A DNA stretch of 64,000 nt, taken from contig CAZYRM010000003.1 in NCBI GenBank assembly GCA_964649705.1, positions 29,850-93,849 of the forward strand, in the 5' to 3' direction. The DNA is from an uncultured Planctomycetia bacterium. Its GTDB lineage: Bacteria > Planctomycetota > MHYJ01 > WSZJ01 > CAZYRM01. The translations under genes and the position numbers were made by a program. The notes beneath the pieces are model-generated. The model did not search any database and had not been told where the DNA came from. It worked only from the letters and a program-made list of their open reading frames with translations. Shown one piece after another: positions 4,665 through 51,237 of the stretch (the stretch's first letter is position 1; each line of letters starts with the position of its first letter).

Positions 4665-4710
4665 CGATTCGATATCTGATATCTGACATCTGAGGTCTGA
4701 TATCAGATAT
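4665..4710. repeat. AT-rich palindromic element copy A (GATATCTGATATC family)
   Basis: cgatatctgatatctgacatctgaggtctgatatcagatatg; arms are reverse complements; member of family also at 4767, 35858, 37531, 50006, 50453. Confidence 0.75.
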
Positions 4711-4766
4711 GTTCCGGGCATCCGGCGTGGTCAGCAGTCGCCAAGGTGATCGCCAGGCCGCGCGGC

Positions 4767-4818
4767 TGGGGCCGATATCTGATATCAGACCTCAGATATC
4801 AGATATCAGATATCGGCC
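4767..4818. repeat. AT-rich palindromic element copy B
   Basis: ggccgatatctgatatcagacc tcagatatcagatatcagatatcggcc: 17-bp perfect terminal inverted repeat; lies in divergent promoter region between acyltransferase and mlaE. Confidence 0.75.
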
Positions 4819-29716: not shown

Positions 29717-29916
29717 CAGAGGTGCTGGGGGAGCTCCGCGACCCGAAGGGATCGGACACGCGACGAGGCGGGTCCCGACGGTCAAGTCGAGCGTGAATGG
29801 CTTCAGACCCGCTCGCAGGGCGGATCGGAAGGCGTCGGGGGTTTCCGATCTGCCCTCTATCACTCCCCGTCGCGCGGGAGAGCGATCGAGTACCTCTCCG
29901 TCTGAATACTCGACGC

Positions 29917-30465
29917 CTACGGGGCCTGCCAGATGATCTTTCCGTTCGCATCGAGGAGAGTGACGCTCGGGAGTCCATTCACGTCCACGCCCTCGGCCAC
30001 GCGAATCTTGCCGTTCGAATCGAAGAGGGTGAGGCTCGGGGATCCATCCACGTCCACGCCCTCTGCTACGCGGAGCTTGCCGTCCGCGTCGCGGAGAGTG
30101 AGATACGGGGACCCTGAGGGGAGCACGCCCACTGCCGTACGGAGCTTCTCGTTGCCGTCGAGAAAACGAAGGGCCGGGGGCCCGTTCGGATCGATGCCCA
30201 AGAACATGAGCGACTTCCCGTCCGCGCTGGACATTTCGAGGGTCGGGGAGTCTCCCTGCCCCACGATCTCGCGCACGTGCAACACCGCGCGTTCCTGCCC
30301 GTCCGTGTCCCGCAGGACGAATTTCGTCGCCTCCACGGTCCCGTCAGGCGAGGTCCATCCCACTGCGACCAAGGCGGCGAAAGCGAGGGACAGCAGAGCC
30401 ACAGCGCCCTTGAGGTGGCGGTTCGACCGCTCCAGGCGGTCGAGACGGTCGGTCAGGTTGTCCAT
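29917..30465 (-). CDS. Membrane-anchored protein with ~20-aa tandem repeats
   Basis: N-terminal TM/signal anchor; repeats GSPYLTLRDADGKLRVAEGVDVDGSPSLTLFDSNGKIRVAEGVDVNGLPSVTLLDANGKI. Confidence 0.5.
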   Translation of the reverse strand: MDNLTDRLDRLERSNRHLKGAVALLSLAFAALVAVGWTSPDGTVEATKFVLRDTDGQERAVLHVREIVGQGDSPTLEMSSADGKSLMFLGIDPNGPPALRFLDGNEKLRTAVGVLPSGSPYLTLRDADGKLRVAEGVDVDGSPSLTLFDSNGKIRVAEGVDVNGLPSVTLLDANGKIIWQAP

Positions 30466-35122: not shown

Positions 35123-35646
35123 AGCAACAGGGTCGACTCTGGACGCGTGCTGCCCTTCGCTTTCCTCAGCTCAGGGAGGCGTTTTCGACGCTTCCCTCTG
35201 CGTCATTGCCGCCAGCAGCTTCAGGTTTCTCTCCTCCTCCCCACCCTCCCGCAGACCCTGCTCGCACCTCCTTCGCAGTTCCGCGATCCACGCGGCCAGC
35301 GGTCGCCCGCCGAACGGCGGCGCAGCGGCGCTGGCTCCCCATTCCGCGATTCCACCTCCTCCCGCCCGTTTTCCCCTGGTCCCCTCCCCCGCGCAAAGTG
35401 GCCCCCTGCGGGACCGCGATCAACACGAGCGGGCCACGCGGCGCGGCCGGGGAGGCCCCGGAGCGCTTGCGCGCATCGTAGGGTTGCAGAAACGGCGGGT
35501 GGAGCGCGGATTTGTTTCGTGTAAGGGTAGCACTACACCGGGCGACGGTAGCATCGTGTCGGGCACGGGAAGCCTCGCATCGGACGAGGGAAGCATCCCG
35601 TCGGCTGGGGCATCCCCTTCGAGCCCCCCCGGCCCATTGCTGTCCG

Positions 35647-35859
35647 CCGAACGTGCTTCGCGCGGTCGCCAGGGCGAAGGCGGTCGGCGCGATGGTCGTC
35701 GGCTTCACCGGCGCGAAGGGCGGGAAGCTGCGCTCCCGCGTCGACATGCTGCTCGACGTCCCCTCGGACGACACGCCGCGGGTCCAGGAGTGCCACCTGC
35801 TGGCGGGGCACATCCTGTGCGAGGTCGTCGAGGCCGAGGTGTCCGGGGGGTCTCTTTGA
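35647..35859 (+). pseudogene. Duplicated 3' fragment of gmhA (71 C-terminal codons)
   Basis: Translates PNVLRAVARAKAVGAMVVGFTGAKGGKLRSRVDMLLDVPSDDTPRVQECHLLAGHILCEVVEAEVSGGSL*, ~90% identical to GmhA C-terminus encoded at 27236-27445; no upstream SIS N-terminus. Confidence 0.7.
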
Positions 35860-35946
35860 TATGTGATATCTGCTATGAGATATCTGATATGGGCATCGGG
35901 GCCTCCATATCAGATATGTCATAGCAGATATCACATATCAGATATC
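35858..35946. repeat. AT-rich palindromic element copy C (complete hairpin: 34-bp arms, 15-nt loop)
   Basis: gatatgtgatatctgctatgagatatctgatatg - ggcatcggggcctcc - atatcagatatgtcatagcagatatcacatatcagatatc; arms reverse-complementary with 1 mismatch; begins inside stop codon of gmhA fragment. Confidence 0.8.
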
Positions 35947-36105
35947 TTGTGGGGACTCGGTTCCCCTGTACTGCCGCGTTGCTGGCACATCGCTCTCGGG
36001 TCCATCTCTGGTGTTTTCGAGGCGTCCGTCGCCCTCCCGGGGGCGTGTCGCGGAACTGGGACGCGATTCTGTGACCGGGGGCCCGGGCCGTCCCAAAACG
36101 CGACG

Positions 36106-36195
36106 GGCGGATCGTCGCGGGTCTCCCGCGCATCGTCGCGAGTCTCCCGCGCATCGTCACGAGTCTCCCGCGCATCGTCACGAGTCTCCCGCGAT
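36106..36195. repeat. 21-bp tandem repeat x ~4.3 (gagtctcccgcgcatcgtcac)
   Basis: Direct read: gtctcccgcgcatcgtcgcga / gtctcccgcgcatcgtcacga / gtctcccgcgcatcgtcacga / partial. Confidence 0.7.
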
Positions 36196-36439
36196 CGGCT
36201 GGGCGTCTACGCCTCTTGCCCATCTCGCCTGGGGGCCTCGCGCAGGTCGGACCAGAGGAGCGCCCGGTTCCCCTCGAAGCCGTGGGCCACGCGGCGGGTT
36301 GCGAGGATCAGGCGGACGTCGGCGTCGTCGGAGAGTCGCTCCATGAGCCGGCTGACGACCTCGTAGCCGAGATCGACAGGGTCGGCGAGGTATCGGTTCC
36401 TGACCGCCTGACGGGAGGAGACTCGCCCGGCGCCCCGAG

Positions 36440-37346
36440 CTAGTCGTCCTTCGCGGTCGGGCGCCAGATGATCATGTCTTTCATCTGGTCGTCCCGGAGG
36501 TGGTCCAGGACCACGAAGCGCTTGTCCTGAGTGTTCTGGTGGACGATCGACGAGCCCGTCTGCTTCGGGAGCGGCTTGATGAGCACCATCACGTGCATGG
36601 GGTTGGTGAGCACGTCTCCCGGGAGCGCGTCCTTCCACTGGATCTTCTTGCCGAACTTGTAGCCGCCCTGCACCCCGAAATCCTGGCGCCCCAGCCGCCA
36701 CATCGGGTCCCCGGGCAGCTCGCTGCACTCGCCGGAGCGCACCTGCTGACCCACGCGCGAGAACGCGAACAGGAGGATCTCCTGGTTCATCGCCGGCAGG
36801 AGACCGAGGTCGCACACCTTCGCGTAGTCGCACCCGTCGGCCTTGGGCAGCTCCTGCGCCTGGCGCTGCGCGACGCTGCCCTTCTTGAGGTCGAACACCG
36901 TGAGGTGCAGCGACGGCTTGCCGCCGGTGGTCTTGACGCGCGGCTCGATCAGGTACTCCGCGTGCTGCTTGTCCTTCCATTCGGCCACGTCCTCGTTCTT
37001 GAACAGGACTCCCTTCGGCAGGGCCCCCTCGGCGTACTCCACCTTCAGCGGATGCTCGGCCTCGGCCTTGAAGAGGTAGACGCCGTTCTTGAGGAGCGCC
37101 TGCTGCAGGGCGAGCTGAATCTGCCCGCACGAGGCCTGGAGCGGGTCGGCCTCGGTCTCGCAGCGCACCTGGAGCATGGCGACGACCGACTCCTTCGTGA
37201 GGCCGACGACCTGCTTGCCGACCTTCGTCAGGCCGGCGGAGAGCACGGCGCGCGCCTTGTCGTCCTCGGCGCCGACAGGCACGAGGCCGCGGGCCAGCAG
37301 AAGCGCGATCACGAGCACCCAGGACGTTCCACGATGCGGCATGGCG
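36440..37346 (-). CDS. Secreted hypothetical protein (cargo of 1.6-kb cassette)
   Basis: Signal peptide MPHRGTSWVLVIALLLARGLVPVGA; 302 aa, Lys-rich, GC lower than flanks; start could also be upstream ATG at 37474. Confidence 0.55.
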
Positions 37347-37445
37347 GGCCCTCCTCGCGCCCGCCCCGCGTCGACCCAGGCCAGGTCGCAGGAGCGAGCG
37401 ATACCATCCCAACGGATCGGAGGGTGGCTTGTCAAGGGTCGATGG

Positions 37446-37510
37446 ACCAGGAGGGCCACCTGCTGGCGGGGCACATCCTCTGCGAGCTGATCGAGGCTTC
37501 GTGCCGGTAG
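37446..37510 (+). pseudogene. Second duplicated 3' fragment of gmhA (~21 codons)
   Basis: accaggagggccacctgctggcggggcacatcctctgcgagctgatcgaggc -> QEGHLLAGHILCELIEA, cf. GmhA VQECHLLAGHILCEVIEAETS. Confidence 0.55.
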
Positions 37511-37530
37511 CCAGGGTGTTCTCCGGACCC

Positions 37531-37655
37531 TATCAGATGTCAGATGTCATATCTCAGATGTCTGATATCGTCGCCCCTGACCTCCAGCCGGCCCGTTCCT
37601 GACAAGATGCGACGACATCAGACATCTGAGATATGACATCAGACATCTGATATCT
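37531..37655. repeat. AT-rich palindromic element copy D (42-bp arms separated by 35-bp spacer)
   Basis: tatcagatgtcagatgtcatatctcagatgtctgatatcgtcg ... cgacgacatcagacatctgagatatgacatcagacatctgatatc; right arm supplies last 5 codons + stop of ABC transporter. Confidence 0.75.
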
Positions 37656-39567
37656 TCGACGTATCCACCGCCCTGTACTGCCTGGTCGCCGTCTCCCTGA
37701 ACTGCAGGTGGTACAGCTTCGAGTACAGCCCCATCCTGTCCAGCAGCTCCGCGTGCGTCCCGATCTCGACCACCATCCCCTTCTCCAGGACCAGGATCCG
37801 GTTCGCGTGCTGCACCGTCGACAGCCGGTGCGCGATCACCAGCACCGTCCGCCCTTCCATCAGCCGGTTCAGCGCCGCCTGAACGGCCTGCTCCGACTCG
37901 CTGTCGAGCGCGCTGGTCGCCTCGTCCAGCAGCAGCACCTGCGGGTCCCTGAGGATCGCCCTCGCGATCGCGATCCGCTGCCTCTGCCCGCCCGACAGCT
38001 TCGCCCCTCTCTCCCCCACGATCGAGCCGTATCCCTCCGGGAGCGTCACGATGAAGTCGTCGATGTTCGCCGCCTGGGCCGCGGCCCGCACCTCCTCCAT
38101 CGTCGCCTGGGGCCGCCCGTAGCGTATGTTCTCCTCGATCGTCGTGTGGAAGAGGAACGTGTCCTGCGACACGATGGCCAGCCGCGAGAGGAGCGACGGG
38201 CGGGCCATCCTCCGAAGGTCGACCCCGTCCACCTCGATCGCCCCTTCCGTGGGGTCGTAGTACCTCGCCATCAGGTCGAGGAGCGTCGACTTCCCCGCCC
38301 CCGTCGGCCCCACGATGGCGATCACCTCTCCCTGGCGGATCGAGATGCTGACGTCCTTCAGGACCGGCTCGTCCCGATAGGCGAACCCCACGCCCTTGAA
38401 CTCGATCCCGCGCGCGATGGGCGGGCACTCGACCGCGTCCCCGACGTCCTCGACCTCCGCGTGCGTGTCGAGCAGCTCGAACACGCGGTCGCACGCGGCG
38501 ACGGACTCCTGCAGGATGTTGAACGTCTTCGAAATCGTCTTGAGCTCGCGGTTCACGGCGACCCAGGCCAGCACGAATCCCGCGAACGATCCGCCCGTCA
38601 ACCCGAACTTGCGGTTGATGACGAGCCAGCCGCCGACCACGACCAGGCCCGCGATCCCCGCGGACTGCGCCAGTTCCAGGAACCCCGACGAGAGGGCCTT
38701 CGCCCGCACGAGCGACATGTGCCTCCGCACGAACTCTCGGCACCGCTCGTCGAACTGCGCGAGCATCCGCGACTCGAGCCGGAACGCCTTCACGACGCGG
38801 ATCCCGCCGAACATCTGGTTCATCGTCTCCGTCATCTCTCCCAGCCGGTCGAGCGTCTTGCGCTTCGAGACCTTCATCTTCTTGCCGAGCGCGTAGACGG
38901 GCAGCACGATGAGCGGCAGGAGGACGAACATCCCCACGGCGAGCTGCCACGAGTACCAGGCCGCGATGCCGATCCCGACGACGACCATCATCGGCTGCAG
39001 CACCAGGTCGCCGAAGAGCGCCGTCATCGCGCCCTGGACGACCGAGACGTCGTTCGTCACGCGCGAGATCAGGTCGCCCGCCTTCCGGTCGTGGAAGAAC
39101 TTGAGCGACAGCCCGAGCATGTGCCTGCACAGGTCGCGACGCAGGTCGATCATCGACCGGATCATGACCCACTTCTGGAGGAACTCCTGGGCGTAGTCCA
39201 GCAGGCCCAGCGGGATCGCCAGGGCAAGGCAGATCACGGCGAGCCGCTTCAGCACGTCCCAGGAGTCGCTGCCCGCCTGGGAGAGGAACACGCCGTCGAA
39301 CAGCGGCCGCACGAGCGCCAGCCGCCCCATGTAGCACGCGCTGTACGCCGCCATCGTGAACAGGCAGAGGAGAACGAGCATCTGGTACGGCAGCGCGTAC
39401 CGGTACAGGCGGGCGAGGGAGAAGACCCAGCCGAGCCTTCCGCGGTCTGCGAGGCGGCCGAGGCCCGCGGCGGCCAGCCGGACCGCTCCGTACAGCGCAG
39501 CGAACAGGGCGACGTCTACGGCGAGGACGAGGGCCCAATGCTCCCTGGCCCACAGGACGGCGCGCAT
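37639..39567 (-). CDS. ABC transporter permease/ATP-binding fusion (MsbA-like exporter)
   Basis: 6 TM helices then NBD with Walker A GPTGAGKST, signature LSGGQRQRIAIARA, Walker B LLLDEATSALD; start at MRAVLWAREHW. Confidence 0.85.
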   Translation of the reverse strand: MRAVLWAREHWALVLAVDVALFAALYGAVRLAAAGLGRLADRGRLGWVFSLARLYRYALPYQMLVLLCLFTMAAYSACYMGRLALVRPLFDGVFLSQAGSDSWDVLKRLAVICLALAIPLGLLDYAQEFLQKWVMIRSMIDLRRDLCRHMLGLSLKFFHDRKAGDLISRVTNDVSVVQGAMTALFGDLVLQPMMVVVGIGIAAWYSWQLAVGMFVLLPLIVLPVYALGKKMKVSKRKTLDRLGEMTETMNQMFGGIRVVKAFRLESRMLAQFDERCREFVRRHMSLVRAKALSSGFLELAQSAGIAGLVVVGGWLVINRKFGLTGGSFAGFVLAWVAVNRELKTISKTFNILQESVAACDRVFELLDTHAEVEDVGDAVECPPIARGIEFKGVGFAYRDEPVLKDVSISIRQGEVIAIVGPTGAGKSTLLDLMARYYDPTEGAIEVDGVDLRRMARPSLLSRLAIVSQDTFLFHTTIEENIRYGRPQATMEEVRAAAQAANIDDFIVTLPEGYGSIVGERGAKLSGGQRQRIAIARAILRDPQVLLLDEATSALDSESEQAVQAALNRLMEGRTVLVIAHRLSTVQHANRILVLEKGMVVEIGTHAELLDRMGLYSKLYHLQFRETATRQYRAVDTSKISDV

Positions 39568-46600: not shown

Positions 46601-47802
46601 CGGGGAACCCCGCCGACCTGGCGTTGGAGCCGACTGCGAGCCGCGTGCCGGGCGTCTTCGAGCGGCTCTGGATCGAGGGGCACACCGAGCTGTTCCGGGA
46701 GCTGGCGGCCTTCCTGCCGAAGGGGCTCTCGTCGCCCGTGGAGGAGGTCCGCAAGCGGGTCTGCGCCGTCCTCGGCGCCTCGTGGGAGAAGGTCCGCGCC
46801 CTCGCCCCCGCGGAGTGGGTCGCGGTCATGGAGGGGCCGATCGCCGCGGCGCTGCAGGGGGAGAAGGGCGCGGGGGCCCAGGATGCCCTGGCCGACGTCG
46901 CGCTGCCCCTGCTGGAGGACCGAGCGGCCGCGCGAGCGTACGTGGTCGCGCGCAGGCTCCTCTGGGGCCTCGGCATCACCGCCGAGGGGACGAGCGTGCG
47001 CGCCCGCCCGGGGCTCGACCGCCGCCTCCGACAGCTTGCGGAGCGGACGATCGGCCCGGCGCTGCTCGCCGACCTCGGCGGAAGGGACGAGCAGGCGCGA
47101 CTCGACGCCCTCTCCTACGTGATGGGGCTCGGGCGCACGGCCTCGCTCGCGCTGGCGAAGGCGCTGGGCGACGCGGCGGACCGCACGACCCGCGAGACGC
47201 TCGCGCGGCAGGTCAGGACGCTCGGGAAGGAGGCCGTCGAGCTGATCCGCGCCGAGCTCTCGCCCTTCCAGGAGGCGGTGCGGGCGTCGCGCATCGGCGA
47301 GGTCCTGGATCAGTGGAGCCTCGCGCCGGCGGAGGACCTCGTGCTCGCCCTGGGGCACAAGGACCCGTCGGTGTGGGCGTCGGCCCTGGTGGCGGCGCGG
47401 AAGCTCCCGCGGCGCGACGCGGCGGACGGGCTCTCGCGCGCGGTCAACGGCACGAACCCCGCCGTGGCCGCGGGGGCGGCCCACGCGATCGGCGAGCTGC
47501 GCCTCGACGAAGGGCTCGACACGCTTCGGAACGCGCTGGGCCGCTGGCAGGATCCCCTCGTCCTCAAGGAGGTCTGCCTGGCCCTCGGGAAGCTCCGCGA
47601 CGCGAACTCCTCCACGGACCTGATCCGCCTGGCGACGAAGAAGGGGTTCCTCTGGTTCTCGAAGGGCCTCCCGGACGAGGTCCGCGCGGCGGCGGCCTGG
47701 GCGCTATGCGAGGTCTCGACGGTGGACGCCCAGGACGCGGTCGCGAGGCTGCAGAAGGACTCGAGCGTCGAAGTGCGGTCCGCGATCCACGTGCGAAGCT
47801 GA
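43678..47802 (+). CDS. GGDEF-domain (AGDEF variant) + P-loop ATPase (AAA16/STAND-like) + HEAT-repeat multidomain protein
   Basis: N-terminal diguanylate-cyclase fold (LTGLYNRRY...LLMLDLDDFKKIND...RYAGDEFAIL), Walker A GVPGTGKTRLLGE, long helical arm, C-terminal HEAT units. Confidence 0.8.
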   Translation: MGDGVEKTPESLAALVFKDDLTGLYNRRYLFKWLKAEVKWDANDGPPLSLLMLDLDDFKKINDTRGHLAGDDALRHFAKTFFIGLRPGDVGIRYAGDEFAILCPNTPKAAAAEVGRAFIERLARSPWPPDASRPLLLKASAGLATFPEDAHSPEELVERADEALLHAKRKGKNILSIQGQLDAAHLSEIRALEGIPCPRFIGRAAEVSLVEESIIGVSGGRAALLLLDGVPGTGKTRLLGETVRRAKELGWTCLLERCSEYESALPLQPLVALVEQYVRTHPEDAMRFSREIAEEPLGVLSEHVRVLDAPPDAVARAKALPEATRRKHFFHALAHFLTSLAREHPVLIALDEFQFADLGTLEVVRRLVTTESCQLLVAAARRTNPGEPAAPGFDRLLSGLEEAGALAHLELGPFQEAELIDFLTALLPGAEQVPTLAALLAPMCHGNPLFLEECLKMLILRGVLKRGVGGWAIETLKKKDLPASLDEVIWSRLSTLDPETSRIMAGAAVIGPNFALDVLQGLSGKNQGETQEMLDRAEKARIIAPDAVGEMRFLNPRIQEVTYGHLDAGERRTLQGQVGRIEEAQGANPARLAARFELAGDEEKAKKYRALRDDVARARFSDSEARNYTRRTRSLRRQRVKEADSPLDKDAEASAASLLRTLVLAVKSRKMYPAGSQMVLQSRKAFLTVATEALSRMGAITATAEKGVLHLNGAAADVKAMGALAQESIAFLEERLLRGITLTRDASTEELERLVDLLHEVKPEEALDPTWWDEALDRRGIAHLGAHPRAYVATNEMAAEVSVVDAIGASVREALRSLCAAVDNARMYPPGSQIIAGSLEQLAKALEEALARTEQVAFADVDGALVVNGVAATARVFGTTASQTLKLLKDRQLKSCAVRRGATRDEVVAFVEELAQSAAEGAELKKRLAARGVTHVEVGEARFAAAREGGTKPPAPPPPPTPAEGVAAQARKWIAGNPADLALEPTASRVPGVFERLWIEGHTELFRELAAFLPKGLSSPVEEVRKRVCAVLGASWEKVRALAPAEWVAVMEGPIAAALQGEKGAGAQDALADVALPLLEDRAAARAYVVARRLLWGLGITAEGTSVRARPGLDRRLRQLAERTIGPALLADLGGRDEQARLDALSYVMGLGRTASLALAKALGDAADRTTRETLARQVRTLGKEAVELIRAELSPFQEAVRASRIGEVLDQWSLAPAEDLVLALGHKDPSVWASALVAARKLPRRDAADGLSRAVNGTNPAVAAGAAHAIGELRLDEGLDTLRNALGRWQDPLVLKEVCLALGKLRDANSSTDLIRLATKKGFLWFSKGLPDEVRAAAAWALCEVSTVDAQDAVARLQKDSSVEVRSAIHVRS

Positions 47803-47805
47803 TCC

Positions 47806-47883
47806 GGGAATTCTCATTTATCAACCTCGCATTTATCAATACAGGCTCAATCCTCGAAGCCCCAACCGCAATTGAGAATTCCC
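47806..47883. promoter_or_regulatory. 11-bp perfect inverted repeat (gggaattctca / tgagaattccc) bracketing AT-rich segment with direct repeat catttatcaa x2
   Basis: Direct read of 100-bp AT-rich intergenic region upstream of 47903 ORF. Confidence 0.3.
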
Positions 47884-49958: not shown

Positions 49959-50005
49959 TCCGACGTCGACGCGCCAGCAGCGTTGCCCTTGGGGGTCTGG
50001 CGGGC

Positions 50006-50054
50006 GAGGCCTCCATATCAGATATCTCATAGCAGATACCACATATCACATATC
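50006..50054. repeat. AT-rich element copy E (single arm = right arm of copy C)
   Basis: gaggcctcc atatcagatatctcatagcagataccacatatcacatatc vs copy C ggggcctcc atatcagatatgtcatagcagatatcacatatcagatatc. Confidence 0.7.
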
Positions 50055-50441
50055 TTCCGAGCCCGAGGCGGGAAGGGACTTCTTCGCCGTGGCGAGGGAC
50101 TTGGAAAAGACGAGCACGAGCTCCTGACACTCGCCGACGAGACGGTTCAGGCTCTTGGCTGTCACGTAGCCCGCCCGGGTCACCAGGCGTAGCCAGTAGA
50201 GCGACTCGCGAAGCTCCTTCAGGGCGATGTGGTACTTGTGGACGAAGTCGGCCTTGCTCTCCGCAGCCCGGGCCTCCTCGTAGTTCGCGCCAGGGGAAGT
50301 CGCCGATCGCAGGAGCTGGTCTCCGCAGTGCCGCGCCGCCTTCGAATGCGGCAGCGCCTCGACCAGCTTCAGCACCCGAACGGCGAACTCCACCAGCCGT
50401 TCGCTCAGCGCCTCAGCCATCCCGTCTCTCCACGTCGACAT
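50046..50441 (-). CDS. Four-helix-bundle protein (23S rRNA intervening-sequence protein family, PF05635/TIGR02436-like)
   Basis: 131 aa; family hallmarks ...ARHCGDQLLRSATS...NYEEA... and RESLYWLRL; flanked by inverted AT-rich repeats E and F. Confidence 0.75.
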   Translation of the reverse strand: MSTWRDGMAEALSERLVEFAVRVLKLVEALPHSKAARHCGDQLLRSATSPGANYEEARAAESKADFVHKYHIALKELRESLYWLRLVTRAGYVTAKSLNRLVGECQELVLVFSKSLATAKKSLPASGSEDM

Positions 50442-50452
50442 GTCGAACCCTC

Positions 50453-50508
50453 CTATGTGATCTGGGATATCTGATATGTGATATCTGATATGTGATATTG
50501 GATATGCG
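50453..50508. repeat. AT-rich element copy F (inverted relative to E)
   Basis: ctatgtgatctgggatatctgatatgtgatatctgatatgtgatattggatatg; reverse complement resembles copy E. Confidence 0.7.
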
Positions 50509-50511
50509 CCC

Positions 50512-51237
50512 CTATCCGGCCACGACAGCCACCAGGACCTCTTCCGCCCCAGCGGCCATCAGTGCTCGCGCACACGCGTCCGCCGTCCCTCCCGTCGTCA
50601 GCACATCGTCAATCAGCAGCACCCTCCCCGTAACGGTCCCCTCGACCCGAAACGCCCCCGCCGGACTCGCCCGCCGCTTCCTGACCGGCAACCGCGCCTG
50701 TCTCGCCGTCGCCCGAACCCGCCTCAGCACCCCTGCGACGAGCGGCCTCCCGAGGGCCTCCGCCACGATCACCCCGATCTCCTCCGCCTGGTTGTAGCCT
50801 CTCTCCCTCCGCCGTGCCCGGTGCAGCGGCACGGGCACGACGACGTCGACGCGCTCCTCCCACCGTCGCGCCAGGAGCGCCTGGGCGAGCCACTCTCCCA
50901 TCGGCCTCGCCAGGAGCGGCTTTCGCAGGAACTTGAGCTCGTGCACGGCCCGCCGCGCAACGCCCTCGTAGCGGACGGCGACGACAGCTCGGCGGAACGC
51001 GAACCGCCTCCCTCGGCACGCCCGGCATCGGCGCCGCGGCCTCCCCGGCGCGCCCCTCGGCTTCCCGCACCGCGGACATGCCTCCGCGCCCACCGCGCGG
51101 ACTGCCCCCTCGCAGGATCCGCACAGATCGACTCGGGCCGTCCCGACGAGCGGCGCATCGCACACGAGGCACGCCCGCGGCCATACAACGTCGATGAGCG
51201 CGCACCCGGCGCGCTCCAGCCACCTTCCGATCCCCAT
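50512..51237 (-). CDS. comF: ComF/GntX-family phosphoribosyltransferase-domain protein
   Basis: N-terminal double CxxC zinc ribbon (CLVCDAPL...CGSCEG...CPRCGKP), C-terminal PRTase motif VLLIDDVLTTGGT. Confidence 0.75.
   Translation of the reverse strand: MGIGRWLERAGCALIDVVWPRACLVCDAPLVGTARVDLCGSCEGAVRAVGAEACPRCGKPRGAPGRPRRRCRACRGRRFAFRRAVVAVRYEGVARRAVHELKFLRKPLLARPMGEWLAQALLARRWEERVDVVVPVPLHRARRRERGYNQAEEIGVIVAEALGRPLVAGVLRRVRATARQARLPVRKRRASPAGAFRVEGTVTGRVLLIDDVLTTGGTADACARALMAAGAEEVLVAVVAG

Follow-up and report, generated by a model that had tools for sequence, protein, structure and literature searches.

The locus considered here raises the question of why a gene for a small helical protein should be enclosed, almost to the base, by two inverted copies of a repeat. 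It lies in a 64,000-nucleotide stretch of DNA (positions 29,850 to 93,849 of contig CAZYRM010000003.1, assembly GCA_964649705.1; hereafter the window) from an uncultured Planctomycetia bacterium. An original prediction had read it as a four-helix-bundle (4HB) gene of the 23S rRNA intervening sequence (IVS) protein family which, together with terminal inverted repeats (TIRs), forms a small transposable cassette. We found that the repeats are tandem arrays of heptamers and that this layout recurs around homologous genes elsewhere. Our preferred reading is that the element may be a selfish or exchangeable cassette of the IVS type residing outside rRNA, with arms that would act as cis sites and probably be bound by the pentameric protein.

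The 131-residue open reading frame (ORF; 50046..50441, minus strand) is Avd-like and matched PF05635 (23S_rRNA_IVP; E=4e-19, 69.2 bits against a curated cut-off of 33.8), TIGR02436 (four helix bundle protein; E=1e-26, 93 bits against a cut-off of 24), and PDB 2RLD (E=1e-18), a structure of five chains. PF05635, the family of the 23S rRNA IVS protein, also includes Avd, a protein of diversity-generating retroelements (DGRs), and the window holds no second member. The G+C content of the window is 69%. On either side of the ORF lies an AT-rich island, and both islands consist of tandem heptamers (GATATCW/GATATGW) inverted with respect to each other, a feature that had gone unremarked. Tandem Repeats Finder (TRF) reported both with a period of 7/14: the downstream arm, array E (50014..50055), has about six units of the CATATCA/GATATCT type (5.9 copies), and the upstream arm, array F (50454..50506), about 7.6 units of GATATCT/GATATGT. 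The gene exactly occupies the space between them, its TGA stop codon (50046-50048) falling within array E and its ribosome-binding site, read from the sequence as GGAGGG (50448..50453, minus strand; 6 nt upstream of the ATG), abutting array F. Positions 50014-50052 pair with 50454-50492 over 39 nt (87% complementary, 34/39, five mismatches), and a second register (49998-50054 with 50466-50522; 57 nt, 77% paired) takes in GC-rich outer extensions of the stem at 49998..50013 and 50507..50522, the latter overlapping the stop codon of a comF-like gene (50512-50514). With up to three mismatches allowed, the heptamer 19-mer GATATCTGATATGTGATAT occurred 16 times in the window versus 0.00 expected from shuffles, and all 16 occurrences sit in four inverted pairs. 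A chance origin of the arms is ruled out by these shuffle statistics, and an assembly artefact by the presence of the same cassette in five independent assemblies, the genome having been seen in Hainich groundwater assemblies. The family matches, the arm pairing of 39-57 nt, and the shuffles thus bear out the proposed 4HB gene between inverted arms; the notion of a fixed TIR sequence has to be given up, the arms being fast-evolving heptamer arrays.

The cassette architecture is conserved across phyla. We retrieved 80 loci, from GTDB genomes spanning more than ten phyla, and scored 93 PF05635 genes for the best pairing of the 140 nt upstream with the 140 nt downstream, each against 40 equally spaced controls from the same locus; in 77 of the 93, no control scored as high as the flanking inverted repeat. 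Autocorrelation peaked at a lag of 7 for nearly all and of 8 for one. TRF arrays were present in 148 of 170 flanks, 134 of them with a period of 7 or 14, and the number of units per arm (median 5.0) had a sharp mode at 5-6. Arm spacing in the 4HB loci was bimodal, with one class at 5-130 nt (hairpins) and another at 340-650 nt (cassettes), and 60 of the 71 inverted heptamer pairs spaced 250-1000 nt apart contained a 4HB ORF. The three nearest homologues checked had the same layout with other units: GATATCT/GACATCT in a syntenic relative, CAAATTT-type in another planctomycete at a different locus from the window's, and GACATTG/GGCATTT in a third genome. The layout was also shared by a second subfamily with a PANIAEG motif, recovered by a DNA-pattern scan (L100 and L201). 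That scan, of JGI metagenomes with three copies of GAYATST, yielded at least four more cassettes and several solo hairpins, the matches listed being mostly on unrelated low-GC contigs. Armed 4HB genes were further found on plasmids of the cultured organisms Nostoc punctiforme, Planktothrix agardhii, Anabaena cylindrica, and Treponema saccharophilum. The original prediction had pointed to paralogues flanked by the same TIRs as a check; homologues in other genomes and loci do carry inverted arms, but these are their own, with units that differ by lineage.

Some of these cassettes have unusual surroundings or layouts. On pANACY.01 of A. cylindrica (L216, 1036-3127), a cassette separates cas2 from cas1 and runs antisense to these two genes; on p1 of P. 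agardhii (L219, 1-3315), one lies between drmD and an MmeI-type gene of a DISARM system; and in N. punctiforme (L217), one lies between tnsA and xisH. The arms of a cassette in a Promineifilaceae metagenome-assembled genome (L017, 5900-6450) have a period of 8 rather than 7 (TTCAACAA/TTCACCAA), which recalls the paired octanucleotide sites of Geobacter metallireducens. At L224 (2330-3010; also L225-L233), the order is T-arm, A-arm, 4HB gene, A-arm, T-arm, and a direct repeat composed of the A-arm and 15 nt of unique flanking sequence (CATCGGGAAGAACAA) occurs on either side of the gene, in a sequence that is identical in about ten metagenome samples.

Gene and arms are gained or lost together. 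The indel unit (49959..50511) is present in the window and in a syntenic relative (L006); in a third genome (L094), only 3 nt (GGG) separate the two convergent stop codons. This is the kind of empty site in a related genome that the original prediction had suggested looking for, and it lacks the gene, the arrays, and a 50-nt spacer, with flanking proteins 59-89% identical to those of the window. No target-site duplication was found at the filled/empty junction between the window and L094, although at ∼79% identity between the relatives a duplication of 2-4 bp could be obscured. Arm unit type and gene are inherited together: eight of nine protein pairs with at least 80% identity shared the heptamer unit in the same polarity, as compared to about 8% of pairs below 60% identity, and paralogues within a single locus (L058) bear different units. 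Sequence turnover in the arms is quick, yet each element keeps its two arms complementary. In the L006 cassette, the 4HB protein is 67.5% identical to the window's as compared to 81-97% for the flanking proteins, and the array polarity is opposite, which is indicative of rapid turnover, or of replacement, at a site that stays the same.

Inverted termini and a filled/empty polymorphism are what one would expect of a classical TIR transposon or miniature inverted-repeat transposable element (MITE), in which a transposase gene located elsewhere would supply the enzyme that recognises the arms and moves the elements in trans, the 4HB gene being a passenger. MITEs and their autonomous parents likewise comprise a long coding form and short, internally deleted forms in several copies per genome, and both the two size classes with truncated intermediates and the near-identical arms at distant sites (34/35 between array E and an arm of hairpin B, described below) would fit. 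However, the junction shows no target-site duplication, an identical copy in a second context was not found, and the cassette has no transposase, its sole ORF being the 131-aa helical-bundle protein. Moreover, the termini are not conserved in sequence, and arms that vary by lineage, and even between the L058 paralogues, are hard to square with a conserved transposase site, and a passenger would not come from one and the same family 60 times out of 71. We therefore regard this explanation as very unlikely, and because a transposase, a target duplication, and an identical second-site copy were all unfound, the label of transposon is unwarranted. What survives of the proposed transposable cassette is the unity of gene and arms, absent together in L094; the suggested MITE/autonomous relationship is a loose fit to the coexisting hairpins and truncated intermediates, with transposition itself unsupported.

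Gene-less hairpins of the cassette's unit family coexist with it in the same genome, and truncated cassettes link the two size classes. As had been noted, the window contains cargo-less hairpins of the same sequence; there are three, all near-perfect: hairpin A (4670..4815; arms 4670-4710/4775-4815; 41 bp, one mismatch, 64-nt loop) between divergent genes, hairpin B (35857..35940; arms 35857-35892/35905-35940; 36 bp, one mismatch, 12-nt loop) after the 3′ end of a gmhA-like gene, and hairpin C (37531..37652; arms 37531-37574/37609-37652; 44 bp, two mismatches, 34-nt loop) with the stop codon of an msbA-like gene in its 3′ arm. Arrays provide stop codons, as TGA within GATATGTGA or GATGTCTGA, for flanking or enclosed genes (the msbA-like gene at 37639-37641, the 4HB gene at 50046-50048, and at L234, 6448-6450), and they thus overlap coding 3′ ends. 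A search for 4HB gene remnants in the loops of hairpins A and C found none. A truncated cassette at L033 (7350-7624) retains, in a 183-nt loop, the 46 C-terminal residues of the protein, 89% identical to those of an intact copy 1 kb away, and L189 is a second, similar case. Of 59 further arrays in the 4HB loci, 19 had the cassette's unit (≤1 mismatch) against a baseline of about 8% between unrelated cassettes. The intergenic region next to one cassette, 1.2 kb off, contains a third, single array of that cassette's CAAATTT/GAGATTT family (L009, 4590-4630).

Array E is closer to an arm of hairpin B, 14 kb away (34/35 identical), than to its own partner F (34/39), such that arms at different sites must share recent ancestry or exchange sequence. 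The match includes the outer flank: array E (50014-50052) plus 8 nt (GAGGCCTCC) corresponds to the 3′ arm of hairpin B plus part of its loop (GGGGCCTCC), so that the cassette looks inside-out relative to hairpin B. On this resemblance, hairpin B might be a circle-junction product of the cassette, a reading for which array polarity, hanging on one base per unit in this lineage, is a poor guide. The loop of hairpin B resembles both ends of the loop of hairpin A (GGGCATC...GGGGCC). Neither the inside-out layout nor the likeness of the loops is explained by any of the models that we tried.

The original prediction had also taken a secreted-protein gene (344 aa; 36440-37474, minus strand) for other cargo bracketed by the repeats. 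This gene lies instead between the complete hairpins B and C, within a 1.5-kb segment bracketed by a direct duplication of ∼240 nt (gmhA-like 3′ end, heptamer hairpin, and msbA 3′ end; window positions 35770-37700), and in three relatives msbA and gmhA (190-191 aa) are directly convergent without it. The two hairpins are old duplicates: the unique flanks of the copies are ∼90% identical but the arms only ∼65%, with one or two mismatches in each stem; because the arms have diverged while the stems remain near-perfect, most differences must be compensated. Solo hairpins turn over, and their units go with the unit family of their genome. The msbA/gmhA junction differs in each relative: the first has a short palindrome of GATATCA/GATGTCA units, on the same contig and of the same unit family as the L006 cassette; the second has no array and only a 30-nt GC-rich spacer; and the third has a long hairpin of CAATGnn-like units resembling the cassette arms of L011, from the same metagenome. 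The region is otherwise rearranged in the window, where the gmhA frame (35512-35859) spans only 115 aa and thus looks truncated, hldE, the usual upstream neighbour of gmhA, is replaced by a WD40 kinase gene, and 21-nt tandem repeats lie beside hairpin B (36107-36197, 4.4 copies, 94%; 35539-35604, 3.1 copies, 72%).

Arrays of this type are abundant without 4HB genes, and several genome papers describe them as unexplained simple sequence repeats (SSRs) (PMC4692102, PMC4679880, PMC2700814). These papers describe 70-75 inverted pairs of the heptamer GGGAATC in Xanthomonas (PMC4692102), TAACTGA heptamers in Beggiatoaceae and cyanobacteria, heptamer pairs likewise being described for Bacteroidetes (PMC4679880), and, in G. 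metallireducens, “global regulator binding sites” of five heptanucleotides, mostly paired, along with octanucleotide sites (PMC2700814). The window's arrays resemble these, and the short tandemly repeated repetitive (STRR) sequences of cyanobacteria, in being intergenic, in having about 4-6 units, and in often forming convergent inverted pairs; in contrast, the SSR papers never mention PF05635 in the text searched and offer G-quadruplex formation, translational control, or a regulator as untested proposals for a role. The cassettes might then be a by-product of SSR dynamics, in which arrays arise and expand by replication slippage in AT-rich intergenic DNA, inverted pairs persist through homogenisation of palindromes by intrastrand repair, and small mobile 4HB ORFs integrate by preference at these recombination-prone arrays. 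Consistent with this, short-loop hairpins have one or two mismatches versus five in the arms spaced 400 nt apart, and complex duplications of arms surround genes (L224; hairpins B and C). However, neither arrays nor gene are present at the empty site, unit type goes with the protein, the number of units is narrowly peaked at 5-6 when slippage would be open-ended, and the fit of the gene between the arms is precise, its ribosome-binding site and stop codon lying at their edges. An origin of the cassettes in SSR dynamics thus seems to us very unlikely.

The main rival is a module that works purely at the RNA level, in which the stem is an RNase III site and/or a bidirectional terminator or 3′ stabiliser, the solo hairpins resemble repetitive extragenic palindromic (REP) sequences, and the gene just rides in the loop as in rRNA IVSs, its protein having no role at the arrays. 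The Coxiella IVS (described below) speaks for this view, with its stem cleaved by RNase III and an ORF that seems dispensable. In the predicted minimum free energy (MFE) fold of the sense RNA, the terminal stem does close the entire 540-nt cassette (z=−3.0). The comF gene ends 70 nt upstream on the same strand, a scan of the arrays for sigma70-like promoters found none, and convergent genes flank solo hairpins B, C, L234, and L237. An A-rich arm 5′ and a T-rich arm 3′, irrespective of strand, predominated among cassettes (41:9 and 6:0) and solo hairpins (11:4 and 13:3), and this polarity, common to both size classes (41:9; 24:7), is as found in bidirectional terminators. An intrinsic terminator scan at the arrays found none, the stems being 36-57 bp and AT-rich as compared to a short GC-rich stem followed by a T run. 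The RNA-level module is hard to reconcile with hairpin A, which lies between divergent genes, or with cassettes antisense to both neighbours, such as that between cas2 and cas1 in Anabaena, and the stems show no excess of G:U over A:C mismatches (see below). It also leaves unexplained why 60 of 71 long loops should be filled by a single family, why there are about five units with a period of 7, and why ORFs that merely ride along should be intact, have strong ribosome-binding sites, and be conserved across phyla. We consider the RNA-level module, taken as the whole explanation, unlikely; it and the cassette model that we favour are not mutually exclusive.

That model starts from the ORF-bearing IVSs of 23S rRNA in Leptospira and Coxiella burnetii, in which a PF05635 ORF likewise lies in the loop of a long stem of terminal inverted repeats and of which short, ORF-less forms are also known. 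In C. burnetii, the terminal inverted repeats of the IVS form a stem of 28 bp, which RNase III cleaves and whose loop contains the S23p ORF; tandem GACAGAT heptamers, in numbers that differ among strains, make up the 5′ region of the stem, and the ORF seems dispensable (PMC4990558). Earlier authors have proposed IVSs to be remnants of mobile elements with an ORF that once served mobility (PMC4990558). The link to 23S IVSs suggested by the original prediction therefore holds at the level of architecture, down to the heptamers. The differences are that the window's ORF has a strong ribosome-binding site, unlike that of Coxiella, that RNase III cutting is known for the Coxiella stem whereas the window's stem is known from sequence alone, and that the window's cassette sits between protein genes instead of occupying helix 25 or 45 of 23S rRNA. 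Because of this position it falls outside the definition of an IVS as lying inside rRNA; indeed, the window contains no rRNA and matched no Rfam family at the gathering threshold.

We propose that the unit is a promoter-poor element of about 550 bp in which a ribosome-binding site and a PF05635 gene are enclosed by inverted arrays of about 5-7 heptamers. The arrays would be its cis-acting part and the encoded protein the trans-acting partner, which might bind the arrays or the stem with roughly one protomer per heptamer, and its targets could be its own transcript or DNA as well as the solo hairpins. Solved relatives of the protein (2GSC and Avd) are homopentamers, and all five protomers of the Avd pentamer use the same residues to contact an RNA stem-loop in the DGR complex (bioRxiv 10.1101/2023.10.23.563531), so that binding of a five-unit periodic nucleic acid by a pentamer is a reasonable inference. 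The stem of 39-57 bp would in RNA be a substrate for RNase III, as in rRNA intervening sequences. Cassettes would spread or be replaced through recombination or conversion at the arrays, or by some hairpin-dependent route, rather than by cut-and-paste; solo hairpins would be what array recombination leaves of decayed cassettes. For this model in its entirety (an IVS-type cassette with heptamer arrays as cis sites, a pentameric product that binds the arrays or the stem, and gain and decay driven by recombination), we estimate a probability of roughly 45%.

Several observations weigh against this reading. No significant flanking repeat was found for 16 of the 93 4HB genes, and only about 4 of the 120 pattern matches listed from the metagenome scan adjoin a 4HB gene, that is, most heptamer arrays do not. 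At L039 (3077-3621), strong inverted heptamer arrays (score 103) bracket an atpC-like ORF (ATP synthase epsilon, by eye), and arrays can therefore flank a housekeeping gene. A residue count of its translation shows that the window's protein is not strongly basic, and the correlation between unit and protein could be plain co-inheritance. Over 62 cassettes, the stem mismatches were 66 of the G:U type and 65 of the A:C type, without strand bias; because G:U is not in excess, selection on a sense-strand RNA helix cannot be claimed, and DNA-level homogenisation or symmetric use is equally compatible. Finally, two exact proteins (P0071 and P0021), each on 20-22 contigs, occurred in one context only, with no identical cassette elsewhere. 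Given this single context and the lack of a target duplication, movement is read only from presence/absence and turnover.

Two further systems invite comparison. As with REP sequences and REPINs and their RAYT proteins, there are many short intergenic palindromes, a few protein genes flanked by inverted copies, and an element sequence specific to the genome or paralogue. The likeness is one of logic only, no homology having been found: a PF05635 helical bundle of ∼130 aa lacks the HUH/Y1 transposase fold and nuclease motif of RAYTs, and tandem heptamer arrays differ from the fixed 20-35-nt palindrome of REPs. With Avd, the protein shares a homologous family of pentameric four-helix bundles; however, what Avd binds in RNA is a tetraloop-capped stem of 11 bp, not heptamers in an array, and no reverse transcriptase, template repeat, or variable repeat adjoins the window's gene, as it would in a DGR.

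These comparisons bear on two puzzles of about 30 years' standing, one being the role of the 23S rRNA IVS protein family and the origin and spread of IVS elements, and the other the over-representation of tandem heptanucleotide repeats, often in inverted pairs, in bacteria such as Xanthomonas, Geobacter, Beggiatoaceae, and cyanobacteria with their STRR sequences. The window and the census show that both belong together: the family is almost always found between inverted heptamer arrays, and the unit follows the protein. Our search of the full-text literature found no paper stating a general link between PF05635 and heptamer arrays, and one may exist beyond the literature searched. A more far-reaching idea, which we put forward tentatively and hold to be rather doubtful, is that PF05635 pentamers are the cognate trans-acting partners of the heptanucleotide (STRR-like) hairpins found in many bacterial genomes, each protomer reading one heptamer and each paralogue co-evolving with its unit family, such that an armed gene would be a “master copy” in the manner of REP/RAYT, though with a wholly different protein, and ORF-bearing 23S IVSs would be copies that landed in rRNA. 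If so, this would explain both how IVSs originated and why bacteria have an excess of 7-nt repeats. Heptamer arms may in any case be used as a genomic marker by which to find further cassettes, also where they are inserted in CRISPR-cas and DISARM operons.

The cassette in the window is situated between the comF-like gene and a 78-aa ORF, with genes for an S41 peptidase and a pentapeptide protein also nearby. A PADLOC scan gave no match, and no protein family besides the PF05635 type was matched for the cassette. Relatives of the protein's subfamily were absent from IMG/VR viral contigs, and searching a phage collection with the protein returned one weak match. Two other repeats were noted in the window: an AT-rich island (47795-47860) just 3′ of a large GGDEF/AAA gene (end 47802) contains the direct repeat CATTTATCAA(N6)CATTTATCAA, which is unrelated to the heptamers, and a 69-nt tandem repeat occurs at 29938-30102 (2.4 copies, 81% identical).

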